The notes: generated from the letters alone by a model not told the origin. Shown: positions 5,397-23,161, numbered from the stretch's first letter. The stretch is 64,000 bases of DNA from Escherichia coli (GCF_003334315.1 NZ_QOWR01000006.1); one strand, 5' to 3'. Numbers and translations: made by a program.

Positions 5397-7469
<2,073 letters not shown>

Positions 7470-17493: not shown

Positions 17494-18145
17494 GTTTCAG
17501 AATCGGTTAGTGGGCACGATCGTGCTGGTGGCGCTGGGGGTGATTGTACTTCCAGGGCTGCTGGACGGGCAGAAAAAACATTATCAGGATGAGTTCGCGG
17601 CTATCCCGCTGGTGCCGAAAGCGGGCGATCGTGATGAGCCTGATATGATGCCAGCCGCCACCCAGGCGTTACCGACGCAGCCGCCGGAAGGCGCAGCGGA
17701 AGAGGTGCGGGCAGGTGATGCCGCAGCACCGTCGCTCGATCCGGCCACTATTGCAGCCAATAACACCGAGTTTGAACCGGAACCTGCACCGGTCGCCCCA
17801 CCGAAGCCGAAACCGGTGGAGCCGCCTAAACCAAAGGTTGAAGCACCACCTGCGCCGAAGCCAGAACCGAAGCCGGTCGTGGAAGAAAAAGCTGCACCGA
17901 CGGGTAAAGCCTATGTTGTGCAACTGGGTGCGCTGAAAAATGCCGATAAAGTGAATGAGATTGTCGGTAAGCTGCGCGGTGCCGGTTATCGGGTTTATAC
18001 GTCGCCATCCACGCCAGTGCAGGGTAAAATTACCCGTATTCTGGTTGGGCCGGATGCCTCGAAAGATAAGCTGAAAGGTTCGCTGGGTGAGTTGAAGCAA
18101 CTTTCTGGCTTAAGTGGCGTGGTAATGGGCTATACGCCGAATTAA
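17483..18145 (+). CDS. dedD: Cell division protein DedD (SPOR domain), 220 aa
   Basis: ORF 17465..18145 trimmed to GTG at 17483 after GAGGAG; Pro/Lys-rich linker and C-terminal SPOR-like domain; overlaps folC 3' end. Confidence 0.85.
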   Translation: MASKFQNRLVGTIVLVALGVIVLPGLLDGQKKHYQDEFAAIPLVPKAGDRDEPDMMPAATQALPTQPPEGAAEEVRAGDAAAPSLDPATIAANNTEFEPEPAPVAPPKPKPVEPPKPKVEAPPAPKPEPKPVVEEKAAPTGKAYVVQLGALKNADKVNEIVGKLRGAGYRVYTSPSTPVQGKITRILVGPDASKDKLKGSLGELKQLSGLSGVVMGYTPN

Positions 18146-18154
18146 TACGGTCTT

Positions 18155-18238
18155 GCCTGATGCGACGCTGGCGCGTCTTATCAGGCCTACGCAGGGGTAG
18201 AACCGTAGGTCGGATAAGGCGTTTACGCCGCATCCGAC
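18155..18238. repeat. BIME: two inverted REP elements
   Basis: gcctgatgcgacgctggcgcgtcttatcaggcctac and gtaggtcggataaggcgtttacgccgcatccgac. Confidence 0.85.
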
Positions 18239-18331
18239 ACGCATTGCCCGATGCCGCAAAGGCATAAAAAGTCGATGGCGTTGAATATTTTTTCAGCGCC
18301 ATTTTTATTGATGCGCGGGAAGGAAATCCCT

Positions 18332-18347
18332 ACGCAAACGTTTTCTT
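18332..18347 (+). promoter_or_regulatory. PurR operator (PUR box) of the cvpA-purF operon
   Basis: acgcaaacgttttctt matches the PUR box core ACGCAAACGTTTNCNT; a -10-like tagaat follows at 18355-18360. Confidence 0.75.
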
Positions 18348-18403
18348 TTTCTGTTAGAATGCGCCCCGAACAGGATGACAGGGCGTAAAATCGTGGGACA
18401 CAT

Positions 18404-18892
18404 ATGGTCTGGATTGATTACGCCATAATCGCGGTGATTGCTTTTTCCTCTCTGGTTAGCCTGATCCGCGGCTTTGTTCGTGAAGCGTTATCGCTGGTGA
18501 CATGGGGTTGTGCTTTCTTTGTTGCCAGTCATTACTACACTTACCTGTCAGTCTGGTTTACGGGCTTTGAAGACGAACTGGTTCGAAATGGGATTGCCAT
18601 CGCGGTACTGTTTATCGCTACCCTGATCGTTGGTGCTATCGTGAACTTCGTGATAGGCCAGTTGGTGGAGAAAACGGGGTTGTCAGGCACCGATCGGGTG
18701 CTGGGCGTCTGTTTCGGTGCGTTGCGCGGTGTGTTGATTGTTGCTGCCATTCTCTTCTTTCTCGACTCCTTTACCGGGGTGTCGAAAAGCGAAGACTGGA
18801 GCAAATCACAGCTGATCCCGCAATTCAGTTTTATCATCAGATGGTTTTTTGATTATCTGCAAAGCTCGTCAAGTTTCTTGCCCAGAGCGTAA
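18404..18892 (+). CDS. cvpA: Colicin V production membrane protein CvpA, 162 aa
   Basis: Recognised sequence; multi-TM; immediately upstream of purF. Confidence 0.92.
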   Translation: MVWIDYAIIAVIAFSSLVSLIRGFVREALSLVTWGCAFFVASHYYTYLSVWFTGFEDELVRNGIAIAVLFIATLIVGAIVNFVIGQLVEKTGLSGTDRVLGVCFGALRGVLIVAAILFFLDSFTGVSKSEDWSKSQLIPQFSFIIRWFFDYLQSSSSFLPRA

Positions 18893-18928
18893 GTGCTCTG
18901 AGATGTGGCTTAACGAGGAAAAAGACGT

Positions 18929-20446
18929 ATGTGCGGTATTGTCGGTATCGCCGGTGTTATGCCGGTTAACCAGTCGATTTATGATGCCTTAACGGTGCTT
19001 CAGCATCGCGGTCAGGATGCCGCCGGCATCATCACCATAGATGCCAATAACTGCTTCCGTTTGCGTAAAGCGAACGGGCTGGTGAGCGATGTATTTGAAG
19101 CTCGCCATATGCAGCGTTTGCAGGGCAATATGGGCATTGGTCATGTGCGTTACCCCACGGCTGGCAGCTCCAGCGCCTCTGAAGCGCAGCCGTTTTACGT
19201 TAACTCCCCGTATGGCATTACGCTTGCCCACAACGGCAATCTGACCAACGCTCACGAGTTGCGTAAAAAACTGTTTGAAGAAAAACGCCGCCACATCAAC
19301 ACCACTTCCGACTCGGAAATTCTGCTTAATATCTTCGCCAGCGAGCTGGACAATTTCCGCCACTACCCGCTGGAAGCCGACAATATTTTCGCTGCCATTG
19401 CTGCCACAAACCGCTTAATCCGCGGCGCGTATGCCTGTGTGGCGATGATTATCGGCCACGGTATGGTTGCTTTCCGCGATCCAAACGGGATTCGTCCGCT
19501 GGTACTGGGAAAACGTGATATTGACGAGAACCGTACAGAATATATGGTCGCTTCCGAAAGCGTAGCGCTCGATACGCTGGGCTTTGATTTCCTGCGTGAC
19601 GTCGCGCCGGGCGAAGCGATTTACATCACTGAAGAAGGGCAGTTGTTTACCCGTCAATGTGCTGACAATCCGGTCAGCAATCCGTGCCTGTTTGAGTATG
19701 TATACTTTGCTCGCCCGGACTCGTTCATCGACAAAATTTCCGTTTACAGCGCGCGTGTGAATATGGGCACGAAACTGGGCGAGAAAATTGCCCGCGAATG
19801 GGAAGATCTGGATATCGACGTGGTGATCCCGATCCCAGAAACCTCGTGTGATATCGCGCTGGAAATTGCTCGTATTCTGGGCAAACCGTACCGCCAGGGC
19901 TTCGTTAAAAACCGCTATGTTGGCCGCACCTTTATCATGCCGGGCCAGCAGCTGCGTCGTAAGTCCGTGCGCCGTAAACTGAATGCCAACCGCGCCGAGT
20001 TCCGCGATAAAAACGTCCTGCTGGTCGACGACTCCATCGTCCGTGGCACCACTTCTGAGCAGATTATCGAGATGGCACGCGAAGCCGGAGCGAAGAAAGT
20101 GTACCTCGCTTCTGCGGCACCGGAAATTCGCTTCCCGAACGTTTATGGTATTGATATGCCGAGCGCCACGGAGCTAATCGCTCACGGTCGTGAAGTGGAT
20201 GAAATTCGCCAGATCATCGGTGCTGACGGGTTGATTTTCCAGGATCTGAACGATCTGATCGAAGCCGTCCGCGCGGAAAACCCGGATATTCAGCAGTTTG
20301 AATGCTCGGTATTCAACGGCGTCTACGTCACCAAAGACGTTGATCAGGGCTACCTCGATTTCCTCGATACGTTACGTAATGATGACGCCAAAGCAGTGCA
20401 ACGTCAGAACGAAGTGGAAAATCTCGAAATGCATAACGAAGGATGA
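18929..20446 (+). CDS. purF: Amidophosphoribosyltransferase PurF, 505 aa
   Basis: N-terminal nucleophile Cys (MCGIVGI); PRPP-binding [13 protein letters not shown]. Confidence 0.97.
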
Positions 20447-20540
20447 TGCCTTCGCTGAGGGTGCCGGTCTGGCACCCTGACTTGCAACTCCCGCCGAAAT
20501 CCTGCAAAGTCTGCCTGCAAGTCTGACAGGGCAACTATTT

Positions 20541-21110
20541 ATGAAACGACTCATTGTAGGCATCAGCGGTGCCAGCGGCGCGATTTATGGCGTGCGCTTA
20601 TTACAGGTTCTGCGCGATGTCACAGATATCGAAACGCATCTGGTGATGAGCCAGGCAGCGCGCCAGACCTTATCCCTCGAAACGGATTTTTCTCTGCGCG
20701 AAGTGCAGGCATTAGCCGATGTCACGCACGATGCGCGCGATATTGCCGCCAGCATCTCTTCCGGTTCTTTCCAGACGCTGGGGATGGTGATTTTACCCTG
20801 TTCAATCAAAACCCTTTCCGGCATTGTCCATAGCTATACTGATGGCTTACTGACCCGTGCGGCAGATGTGGTGCTGAAAGAGCGTCGCCCGTTGGTGCTC
20901 TGCGTGCGTGAAACACCATTGCACTTAGGCCATCTGCGTTTAATGACTCAGGCGGCAGAAATCGGTGCGGTGATTATGCCTCCCGTTCCGGCGTTTTATC
21001 ATCGCCCGCAATCCCTTGATGATGTGATAAATCAGACGGTTAATCGTGTTCTTGACCAGTTTGCGATAACCCTTCCTGAAGATCTCTTTGCCCGCTGGCA
21101 GGGCGCATAA
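20541..21110 (+). CDS. ubiX: Flavin prenyltransferase UbiX, 189 aa
   Basis: GISGASGAIYG flavoprotein motif; recognised sequence. Confidence 0.95.
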   Translation: MKRLIVGISGASGAIYGVRLLQVLRDVTDIETHLVMSQAARQTLSLETDFSLREVQALADVTHDARDIAASISSGSFQTLGMVILPCSIKTLSGIVHSYTDGLLTRAADVVLKERRPLVLCVRETPLHLGHLRLMTQAAEIGAVIMPPVPAFYHRPQSLDDVINQTVNRVLDQFAITLPEDLFARWQGA

Positions 21111-21118
21111 CTCCGCTG

Positions 21119-21141
21119 TTGCCCTGTTTCAGGGCAATTTT
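21119..21141 (+). terminator. Intrinsic terminator downstream of ubiX
   Basis: Hairpin ttgccct-gtttc-agggcaa followed by tttt. Confidence 0.65.
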
Positions 21142-21291
21142 GCAACCGCGATCAAATCCTCGACATTTTGTTTCTGCCATTCAATCGAAACGCTGCGATT
21201 CAACCGCTATACCTGCTATCTTCAACTTCAGGACAATAATGCAACGTCTTATTAACATATTTAACGTTGAATGTTACTGTTGTCGTCAAGA

Positions 21292-21307
21292 TGGCATAAG
21301 ACCTGCA
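21292..21307 (+). promoter_or_regulatory. sigma54 (-24/-12) promoter candidate for argT
   Basis: tGGcat-aagac-ctGCa: GG and GC are spaced exactly as in the TGGCAC-N5-TTGCA consensus, ~70 bp upstream of the argT ATG; argT is a known Ntr-regulon gene. Confidence 0.65.
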
Positions 21308-21375
21308 TGAAAGAGCCTGCAAACACACAACACAATACACAACATAAAAAAGCCATTTTCACTTGAGGGTTATGT

Positions 21376-22158
21376 ATGAAGAAGTCGATTCTCGCTCTGT
21401 CTTTGTTAGTCGGTCTCTCCACAGCGGCTTCCAGCTATGCGGCGCTACCGGAGACGGTACGTATCGGAACCGATACCACCTACGCACCGTTCTCATCGAA
21501 AGATGCTAAAGGTGATTTTGTTGGCTTTGATATCGATCTCGGTAACGAGATGTGCAAACGGATGCAGGTGAAATGTACCTGGGTTGCCAGTGACTTTGAC
21601 GCGCTGATCCCCTCACTGAAAGCGAAAAAAATCGACGCTATTATTTCGTCGCTTTCCATTACCGATAAACGTCAGCAGGAGATTGCCTTCTCCGACAAGC
21701 TGTACGCCGCAGATTCTCGTTTGATTGCGGCCAAAGGTTCACCGATTCAGCCAACGCTGGATTCACTGAAAGGTAAACATGTTGGTGTGCTGCAGGGATC
21801 AACCCAGGAAGCTTACGCTAACGAGACCTGGCGTAGTAAAGGCGTGGATGTGGTGGCCTATGCCAACCAGGATTTGGTCTATTCCGATCTGGCTGCAGGA
21901 CGTCTGGATGCTGCGTTACAAGATGAAGTTGCTGCCAGCGAAGGATTCCTCAAGCAACCTGCTGGTAAAGATTTCGCCTTTGCTGGCTCATCAGTAAAAG
22001 ACAAAAAATACTTCGGTGATGGCACCGGTGTAGGGCTACGTAAAGATGATGCTGAACTGACGGCTGCCTTCAATAAGGCGCTTGGCGAGCTGCGTCAGGA
22101 CGGCACCTACGACAAGATGGCGAAAAAGTATTTCGACTTTAATGTCTACGGTGACTGA
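21376..22158 (+). CDS. argT: Lysine/arginine/ornithine-binding periplasmic protein ArgT, 260 aa
   Basis: Signal peptide plus recognised sequence; paralogue of the adjacent hisJ. Confidence 0.95.
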
Positions 22159-22216
22159 TACGTCGCTGGGAAGCTGTACCTGATGGAATGATCATCATGG
22201 TGCACGCCAGGTTTGT

Positions 22217-22233
22217 TGCACTATCGTGGTGCA
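22217..22233 (+). promoter_or_regulatory. NtrC-like enhancer palindrome upstream of hisJ
   Basis: tgcactatcgtggtgca resembles the NtrC consensus TGCACCA-N3-TGGTGCA; lies ~100 bp upstream of a weak -24-like TGGCAC at 22315. Confidence 0.4.
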
Positions 22234-22378
22234 TTGAAATGCATACTTAAGCATTTTTAATGAAAAATAATACGTCTAACGGGGCGGGATATTTTGCCTT
22301 GATGGTCAATTTTATGGCACGATAAGTGTAACAAACCTGTAAATATTCCCTATAAAAAGACTGTCAGTTGAGGACATT

Positions 22379-23161
22379 ATGAAAAAACTGGTGCTATCGC
22401 TCTCTCTGGTTCTGGCCTTCTCCAGCGCAACTGCGGCATTTGCTGCGATTCCGCAAAACATCCGCATCGGTACCGACCCGACCTATGCGCCATTTGAATC
22501 AAAAAATTCACAAGGCGAACTGGTTGGCTTCGATATCGATCTGGCAAAGGAATTATGCAAACGCATCAATACGCAATGTACGTTTGTCGAAAATCCGCTG
22601 GATGCGTTAATCCCGTCCTTAAAAGCGAAGAAGATTGACGCCATCATGTCATCGCTTTCCATTACGGAAAAACGTCAGCAAGAAATAGCCTTCACCGACA
22701 AACTGTACGCTGCCGATTCTCGTTTGGTGGTGGCGAAAAATTCTGACATTCAGCCGACAGTCGAGTCGCTGAAAGGCAAACGGGTAGGCGTATTGCAGGG
22801 CACCACCCAGGAGACGTTCGGTAATGAACATTGGGCACCAAAAGGCATTGAAATCGTCTCGTATCAGGGGCAGGACAACATTTATTCTGACCTGACTGCC
22901 GGACGTATTGATGCCGCGTTCCAGGATGAGGTCGCCGCCAGCGAAGGTTTCCTCAAACAACCTGTCGGTAAAGATTACAAATTCGGTGGCCCGTCTGTTA
23001 AAGATGAAAAACTGTTTGGCGTAGGGACCGGCATGGGCCTGCGTAAAGAAGATAACGAACTGCGCGAAGCACTGAACAAAGCCTTTGCCGAAATGCGCGC
23101 TGACGGTACTTACGAGAAATTAGCGAAAAAGTACTTCGATTTTGATGTTTATGGTGGCTAA
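22379..23161 (+). CDS. hisJ: Histidine-binding periplasmic protein HisJ, 260 aa
   Basis: Signal peptide plus recognised sequence. Confidence 0.95.

Follow-up and report, generated by a model that had tools for sequence, protein, structure and literature searches.

A conserved stem-loop without a U-tract forms a leaky 3' boundary between purF and ubiX in Escherichia coli

How the cvpA-purF message ends in Escherichia coli, and how ubiX is expressed behind it, is the question raised by a GC-rich hairpin that lies between purF and ubiX and is not followed by a U-tract. The original prediction, made from a 64,000-nucleotide stretch of E. coli DNA (NZ_QOWR01000006.1; hereafter the window), took the hairpin for a partial terminator, a protein-dependent terminator or a stability element separating the cvpA-purF unit from ubiX. 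In the window, the genes follow each other in the order dedD, cvpA, purF, ubiX, argT, hisJ (ORF list and RefSeq annotation of MG1655), with cvpA at 18404-18892, purF at 18929-20446 (stop codon TGA at 20444-20446) and ubiX at 20541-21110 (ATG at 20541-20543); these three genes and the hairpin, promoters and RNA ends associated with them are on the + strand. The 401 bases around the hairpin were matched in 5426 of 5426 complete E. coli genomes, where the match falls on annotated purF and ubiX, and the purF-ubiX spacer of the window is that of MG1655 without a single base difference. Published K-12 data could therefore be used directly for the window, with coordinates converted as MG1655 (NC_000913.3) = 2449167 - window position. 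Transcripts reaching the hairpin originate in the purF-operon control region (18333-18368), which contains a PurR box ACGCAAACGTTTTCTT (18333-18348), published as the PurR site of the operon (PMC3159470), a -10 hexamer TAGAAT identified from the sequence (18355-18360) and a transcription start site (TSS) at ~18368 (MG1655 2430799; Yan 2018, PMC6131387). A terminator-like hairpin with a T run is found at 18274-18303, just 5' of the PurR box.

The hairpin between purF and ubiX occupies 20458-20478 and consists of a 5' arm AGGGTGCC (20458-20465), a five-nucleotide loop GGTCT (20466-20470) and a 3' arm GGCACCCT (20471-20478), forming a stem of 8 perfect base pairs, six of which are G-C. Eleven nucleotides separate the stem from the purF stop codon, so that it begins at the 12th nucleotide after TGA. 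Right 3' of the stem follows GACTTGCAACTCC, with two U in the next 9 nt, the first three nucleotides being G, A and C (tail GACUUGCAA). The coordinates, stem and loop, the distance of 12 nt from the purF stop and the lack of a U-tract had all been predicted exactly. The 21-nt hairpin alone has a folding energy of -15.0 kcal/mol; in a 37-nt context this is -17.4 kcal/mol compared to -10.5 ± 2.4 kcal/mol for dinucleotide shuffles (z = -2.9; equalled by 2 of 200 shuffles), while the fold of the whole purF-ubiX spacer gives z = -1.8. A search for perfect hairpins with a stem of 8 bp or more and six or more G-C pairs returned 10 rows in the window versus 1.5 ± 1.1 in shuffled windows. Since about 1.5 are expected per shuffled window, one GC-rich 8-bp hairpin in 64 kb is unremarkable by itself, and it is position and conservation that raise the purF-ubiX hairpin above chance. 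The hairpin was not called in a consensus terminator scan because it has no T run, and it is unannotated in RefSeq MG1655.

With the REP/BIME elements that stabilise mRNA 3' ends the hairpin shares the form of an intergenic GC-rich palindrome able to stall 3' exonucleases, but it is present in single copy, at one place per genome in 5422-5425 E. coli genomes. An Rfam scan of 18000-22500 at E ≤ 10 detected nothing at the hairpin and only sub-threshold REP-type matches in the dedD-cvpA spacer, to which the hairpin is unlike in this respect. Membership of REP or another repeat family was rejected on the basis of the single copy and of the missing naRNA4/REP model match at the site. The dedD-cvpA spacer itself (18119-18264) carries REP/BIME-type palindromes, with three sub-threshold Rfam naRNA4 matches (38 bits versus a gathering score of 59.5).

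Two published K-12 datasets, obtained by Term-seq and SMRT-Cappable-seq, place the 3' ends of cvpA-purF RNAs at 20482-20484, 4-6 nt past the stem. In the Term-seq data, the 'primary' purF 3' end is 2428685(-), corresponding to window 20482 and 4 nt past the stem (Adams 2021, PMC7815308, Supplementary file 1). This end is present in two of the three growth-condition tables which, judged from the entry positions in the file, are those for LB OD 0.4 and M63, the end being absent from LB OD 2.0. SMRT-Cappable-seq, by which whole primary (capped) transcripts are read, identified a 'novelTTS' at 2428683 (~window 20484) for transcripts starting at TSS 2430799 (window 18368; Yan 2018). In M9 medium, 868 reads were counted at the TSS, of which 254 stop at the site and 191 pass, with 68 reads ending ≤50 bp past the TTS and a median read-through of 99 nt; the corresponding numbers in rich medium are 190 reads at the TSS, 113 stopping, 25 passing, 29 ending ≤50 bp past the TTS and a median read-through of 126 nt (Yan 2018). 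Expressed relative to the purF-promoter reads that reach the site, the fraction that ends there is 57% in M9 and 82% in rich medium. Many of the passing reads end within the next ~100-126 nt and a minority represents the full cvpA-purF-ubiX transcript. The zone in which read-through ends (20479-20610) covers the untranslated spacer, which is C-rich, and extends 40-70 nt into ubiX; the C/G ratio is 1.47-1.58 in 60-nt windows covering 20460-20539 and ~0.7-0.8 beyond, a modest bias over a short stretch. The SMRT-Cappable-seq operon table contains both b2313-b2312 and b2313-b2312-b2311 from the purF-operon TSS (Yan 2018). The hairpin is thus a partial 3'-end-forming element and the leaky 3' boundary of the cvpA-purF message. 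The original prediction had proposed Term-seq or RNA-seq coverage as a check, and the mapped ends at 20482 and ~20484, the share of reads that stop there and the existence of both transcription units all agree with it, although these data do not choose among a partial terminator, a protein-dependent terminator and a stability element. No entry for the site was present in the supplementary 3'-end and TSS tables of PMC12207403 and PMC4782308.

The original prediction had overlooked a second element. It is strongly supported that ubiX has a weak, conserved sigma-70 promoter of its own that starts immediately after the stem, with a -35 hexamer TTGCAA (20482-20487), a -10 hexamer CAAAGT (20505-20510) 17 bp further downstream, and a TSS at G20517, 35 nt from the -35 hexamer. 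This promoter was predicted from the alignment described below before the published TSS was found, and the TSS lies exactly 7 nt past the end of the predicted -10 hexamer. The TSS was reported at 2426672(-) in U00096.2 with 8 reads and a 24-nt 5'UTR, and the quoted 51-mer ends at window G20517 (Kim 2012, PMC3415461). Read support for this ubiX-only mRNA is thin (8 reads, one dataset), yet its start coincides exactly with conserved elements. A Shine-Dalgarno-like AGGG (20528-20531) was identified from the sequence at a 9-nt spacing from the ATG, and (A/G)GGGC is kept upstream of the ubiX start in relatives. The 17-bp spacer between the hexamers and the TSS 7 nt past the -10 element are within the 16-18 bp and 6-8 nt expected of a sigma-70 promoter; TTGCAA matches the consensus at 4/6 positions and CAAAGT at 3/6 (A2 and T6 kept). 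The match of 7/12 positions in total is weak, and because of this the promoter was not called in a consensus promoter scan of the window. SMRT-Cappable-seq size-selects against RNAs as short as the ubiX-only mRNA. No ubiX-only unit is listed in the operon table obtained by that method (Yan 2018). A second 5' end assigned to ubiX in the same study as the TSS (Kim 2012; 10 reads, 108-nt leader) maps to window 20433, inside the last purF codons. It has no convincing -10 element upstream, could be a processing product or noise, and together with the 3' end at 20482 would bound a 50-nt RNA ending in the hairpin. With regard to the idea of a small RNA from the purF 3'UTR, no paper joining purF with Hfq or RIL-seq was found in the literature.

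For comparison, species-representative genomes with UbiX were collected, giving 80 Enterobacteriaceae loci, in 70 of which purF is directly upstream; the window and these 70 relatives make up 71 purF-linked sequences. The -35 hexamer is TTGCAA in 61 of the 71 sequences, TTGCGT in 7 and TTGCAT in 3, and the -10 hexamer is CAAAGT in 48, CACAGT in 20 and CATTGT in 3, the spacer always being 17 bp. The block TTGCAAC...AAATCCTGCA(A/C)AGTC after the hairpin is the most conserved stretch of the spacer. It is also kept in Klebsiella and Raoultella, where it is preceded by a separate canonical terminator, and in 7 of the 10 loci in which the upstream gene is not purF but encodes a LacI-type regulator, a HypC-like protein or a membrane protein. 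A LacI-family-like or HypC-like gene is inserted between purF and ubiX, upstream of position 2001 of the extracted locus, in L020, L047, L051, L054 and L075 and in L043 and L067, and in several genera the 3' end of the inserted gene runs into the conserved promoter block.

A strong hairpin (-11.7 to -27.5 kcal/mol), starting 1-18 nt past the purF stop codon, is present in 70 of the 70 purF-linked loci. The sequence of the stem differs between genera, as in TCAGGGTGCC/GGCACCCTGA of Escherichia, GCAAGCAAGGGCGC/GCGCCCTTGCTTGC of the Citrobacter freundii group, GCAGGTGAGGGCG/CGCCCTCACTTGC of Enterobacter and GCGCCCCTC/GAGGGGCGC of Kosakonia, and about 17 distinct versions of the hairpin 3' side occur among the purF-linked loci. 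MAFFT alignment followed by RNAalifold recovered a 4-bp core alone, the stems being out of register between genera, and conservation was judged from folds of each locus against shuffles. With loci treated as independent, the region from the stop codon to the -35 hexamer has a median z of -3.9 relative to its own dinucleotide shuffles, and 87% of the loci are below -2. Within Escherichia, differences concern the loop, a G.U pair (E. albertii) or the base of the stem. With a G at 20457, as in K-12, the stem is 8 bp, and the exact K-12 61-mer was found in 3026 of 5426 genomes. A C at this position lengthens the stem to 10 bp (20456-20480; -19.5 kcal/mol) and makes it ~4.5 kcal/mol more stable; it was found in 1736 of the 5426 E. 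coli genomes (32%) and also occurs in other species of Escherichia. The G disrupts two outer pairs retained by most other Escherichia, and the common K-12 allele is apparently the weaker, derived state.

The turnover of sequence with pairing kept across genera points to an RNA structure and not to a protein-binding DNA site, and these comparisons indicate that the purF-ubiX hairpin is real and is selected as an RNA stem. That it would be a chance inverted repeat without function, the mapped 3' ends being inconsequential exonuclease stalls, is very improbable: the number of such hairpins expected per shuffled 64-kb window and the K-12 allele, the weakest of all versions (region z only -1.9), could be cited for it, but a hairpin stands at the same place in all 70 relatives despite sequence turnover and with the low median z given above, its stem is preserved within Escherichia, and in two datasets the predominant 3' end of an abundant mRNA is found at it. 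We give as little credence to a signal at the DNA level, in which the palindrome would be an operator for a regulator of the ubiX promoter (centre at ~-49) or TGGCAC...TTGCA would be the -24/-12 elements of a sigma-54 promoter. The palindrome is indeed just 5' of the mapped ubiX promoter; its sequence nevertheless changes freely across genera while pairing is kept, the opposite of the sequence-invariant hairpin after ubiX, and the DNA operator was rejected for this reason. The 3' arm with its flank, TGGCACCCTGACTTGCA, is near the sigma-54 consensus TGGCAC-N5-TTGCW, and a genuine sigma-54 promoter (argT) is 800 bp downstream, but the spacing between GG and GC is one base too long (TGGCAC-N6-TTGC instead of the required N5), TGGCAC is confined to Escherichia with unrelated stems in other genera, and RpoN genomic SELEX peaks are in the dedD/cvpA and ubiX/argT spacers with none in purF/ubiX. 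A sigma-54 promoter at TGGCACCCTGACTTGCA was therefore rejected as well. In one of the 5426 E. coli genomes, NZ_AP027424.1 (strain B27; positions 1360-1680 of locus L082) the ubiX region is scrambled and shortened and no ubiX is annotated, while the hairpin and TTGCAA are kept; this is either true gene decay or an assembly artefact.

The comparison also offers an explanation for the missing U-tract. The Term-seq 3' end (20482) falls on the first T of the -35 hexamer, and it is strongly supported that the -35 hexamer occupies the space of a U-tract, which is absent because its position is taken. The wider the gap between stem and -35 hexamer, the more U the 8-nt tail contains (Spearman 0.85; 71 sequences, treated as independent). 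The median is 1 U in the 45 loci with a gap of ≤3 nt, which include Escherichia, Citrobacter and Enterobacter, 4 U in the 18 loci with a gap of 4-9 nt, and 6.5 U in the 8 loci with a gap of ≥20 nt, which include Klebsiella, Raoultella and Siccibacter. U-tracts are restricted to genera with the hairpin at least 20 nt from the ubiX -35 hexamer: the canonical U-tract terminators of Klebsiella and Raoultella have a gap of 26-36 nt, and in Enterobacter and Citrobacter the terminator stem overlaps the hexamer. The purF end in the Enterobacteriaceae thereby ranges from a complete U-tract terminator through all intermediate states to a stem alone, with the U content tracking the nearness of the next promoter.

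As to the mechanism by which the 3' ends arise, we lean towards the explanation that the hairpin is the 3'-end stem-loop of the cvpA-purF mRNA, protecting ends that result from a factor-dependent stop further downstream, with the ubiX promoter abutting it. Transcripts from the PurR-controlled purF-operon promoter run through purF, and at steady state most of those reaching the hairpin end at 20482-20484; a minority passes, and only some of these become full cvpA-purF-ubiX mRNA. The stem alone would be a poor intrinsic terminator because it is followed by GACUUGCA instead of a U-tract. Polymerases would mostly stop in the next ~100 nt, in the C-rich untranslated spacer and the first ubiX codons, and this stop would depend on a factor, Rho being the most likely candidate, that acts ahead of ribosome loading at the weak ubiX ribosome-binding site. 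Exonucleases working 3' to 5' would then trim the RNA back to the stem, by which the purF message would be protected. The weak sigma-70 promoter (TTGCAA-17 bp-CAAAGT, TSS G20517) very probably provides ubiX expression independent of purine repression. The annotated cvpA-purF-ubiX operon would accordingly consist of two overlapping units, the hairpin setting the leak of purF-promoter transcription into ubiX.

Such elements have been described in E. coli, where Rho-dependent transcripts end right after stable stem-loops without U-rich tails, with a mild C-over-G enrichment downstream, and the ends are made by PNPase/RNase II trimming (Dar & Sorek 2018, PMC6061677). The purF hairpin shares with these protective stem-loops a stable GC-rich stem right before a precisely mapped 3' end, the lack of a U-rich tail and of an upstream A-tract, a possible mild C-over-G bias downstream and heterogeneous ends in the ~100 nt beyond. 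The protective-stem reading appears to fit the G, A and C next to the stem, the C/G ratio of ~1.5 in the next 60 nt and the ragged read-through ends, short ragged read-through being the pattern expected from diffuse termination and trimmed-back ends. In contrast to the described class, however, the purF-ubiX site is missing from one bicyclomycin-based table, and the likeness is one of sequence and mapped ends: the table of Rho-termination regions, which gives the top position per 800-nt window, has no purF/ubiX entry (Adams 2021, Supplementary file 2). This missing entry would mildly disfavour an involvement of Rho. No bicyclomycin paper was found for ubiX in the literature.

A weak non-canonical intrinsic terminator has to be weighed against this explanation. 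The hairpin, possibly with NusA/NusG, would then release RNA polymerase at ~20482-20486 with 55-80% efficiency, and the downstream ends would be decay intermediates; we regard this as possible but doubtful. The same missing purF/ubiX Rho region (Adams 2021) speaks for it, as do the 3' ends found 4-6 nt past the stem by two independent methods, but ends just past a stem in vivo are common to canonical terminators and protective stem-loops and therefore do not discriminate, and the mapped ends are nearer to the stem than the usual 7-9 nt. At the orthologous position, canonical or semi-canonical intrinsic terminators are present in Klebsiella, Raoultella, Franconibacter, Siccibacter and others, forming a continuum in U content, and in the 32% of E. 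coli that carry the 10-bp allele, CUU follows the stem. The canonical intrinsic terminators of Klebsiella and Raoultella follow the purF stop at the same place as the E. coli hairpin, with stems comparable in length and energy (-15 to -26 kcal/mol) and a 3' end few nucleotides past the stem, and the function of ending the purF message is apparently the same. They differ in the tail, with 6-7 U in 8 nt compared to 2 U in 9 nt in E. coli. The E. coli element thus has the GC-rich stem of ~5-14 bp and the short loop of a canonical terminator and does not have the U-rich tract of 7-8 nt. Intrinsic termination requires a weak rU:dA hybrid adjoining the stem for release. Against an intrinsic terminator, G, A and C are found directly past the stem and only 2 of 9 tail positions are U, and E. 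coli terminal stem-loops of the U-less class are mainly protective (Dar & Sorek 2018). In vitro run-off array data, in which cvpA, purF and ubiX behave alike, do not separate the models. Taken together, a protective stem is somewhat more likely than a weak intrinsic terminator, and the two are not mutually exclusive: the E. coli stem might still terminate weakly by itself or with NusA/NusG. The intermediate tails (e.g., CUUUCCUUG) and full U-tracts of the relatives suggest that direct intrinsic termination may have been the ancestral or general role.

This leads to a broader proposal, which we put forward only tentatively and consider rather unlikely as a whole, namely that hairpin and promoter form a compact terminator-promoter module. 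The promoter would have displaced the U-tract, and an ancestral intrinsic terminator, of which Klebsiella and Raoultella keep the intact form, would thereby have become leaky and factor-dependent, the amount of read-through into ubiX being set by competition between Rho and the ribosomes that load at the weak ubiX start. That the two types of terminators are readily interchanged in evolution has been predicted (Dar & Sorek 2018), and, if the proposal holds, the purF end would be a natural, dated case of this Rho-independent/Rho-dependent switching, and the supply of the ubiquinone cofactor would be linked to purine status and translation capacity.

The 3' arm and its flank at 20475-20486 are complementary to the start of the ubiX-only transcript at 20516-20531 (12 pairs and a 4-nt bulge; -17.3 kcal/mol). 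The 5' arm and the ubiX leader are near direct repeats, with 13 nt identical in C. werkmanii, and three-way matching changes are found in Citrobacter, both in a lineage-restricted manner. These relations could be read as a translational switch in which the 3' arm with flank (CCCUGACUUGCA) has two alternative pairing partners, the 5' arm and the ubiX leader (UGCAAGUCUGACAGGG), so that read-through mRNAs and promoter-proximal mRNAs translate ubiX differently. The duplex with the cognate leader is strong in Escherichia (-17.3 versus -11.3 kcal/mol with non-cognate leaders) and in Citrobacter (-19 to -23 kcal/mol), and all three segments carry matching changes (CCCTGACTT/AAGTCAG versus CCCTTGCTT/AAGCAAG). 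We nevertheless judge the switch improbable. It is limited to Escherichia and Citrobacter, a cluster-level permutation test gave p = 0.58, and the apparent covariation comes down to no more than one or two changes in evolution. In addition, the partition-function accessibility of AGGG and AUG is no lower in the read-through RNA than in the short transcript, and the fold of the whole spacer reaches only the z of -1.8 mentioned above.

Returning to the protective stem-loop, the purF hairpin differs from a typical gene-end element in that it is inside an annotated operon and abuts a promoter, and because of this read-through is productive and not wasteful. With intra-operon attenuating terminators combined with internal promoters it shares a partial stop between cistrons and a downstream promoter, which uncouple ubiX, a gene of the ubiquinone pathway, from PurR; it differs from these in that stem and -35 hexamer are contiguous in E. 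coli, and no regulatory input on the stop is indicated. A ubiquinone-pathway gene behind a PurR-repressed operon can thus escape purine shut-off through the combination of its weak promoter and limited read-through. For annotation, the textbook cvpA-purF-ubiX operon resolves into a cvpA-purF unit from which read-through is limited and a weak promoter specific to ubiX, and for prediction the locus provides a clean comparative example of true gene ends missed by terminator predictors. The consequences are modest and leave current models unchallenged: the type of element is well described, and the purF-ubiX instance is already contained in public 3'-end and TSS tables, where it was never discussed individually.

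Downstream of ubiX, a further hairpin TTGCCCTG-TTT-CAGGGCAA followed by TTTT is present within 21119-21175, and its sequence is near-invariant in ~70 Enterobacteriaceae loci. The block that follows it, TTTTGYAAC-GCGATCAWATCCTCRACATTTAAT, is equally conserved. From this conservation the post-ubiX hairpin looks like a terminator that may double as, or adjoin, a site at which a protein binds in the control region of argT. In E. coli, the sequence past this hairpin at 21137-21160 (TTGCAAC-N7-AAATCCT) resembles that past the purF hairpin at 20482-20504 (TTGCAAC-N8-AAATCCT). A kinship between the two blocks was dismissed as probably coincidence, other genera having TTGTAAC...ATATCC after ubiX. The argT sigma-54 promoter TGGCATAAGACCTGCAT (21293-21309) has the correct spacing, and a strong Term-seq 'orphan' 3' end maps to the argT leader at MG1655 2427825 (window 21342; Adams 2021).
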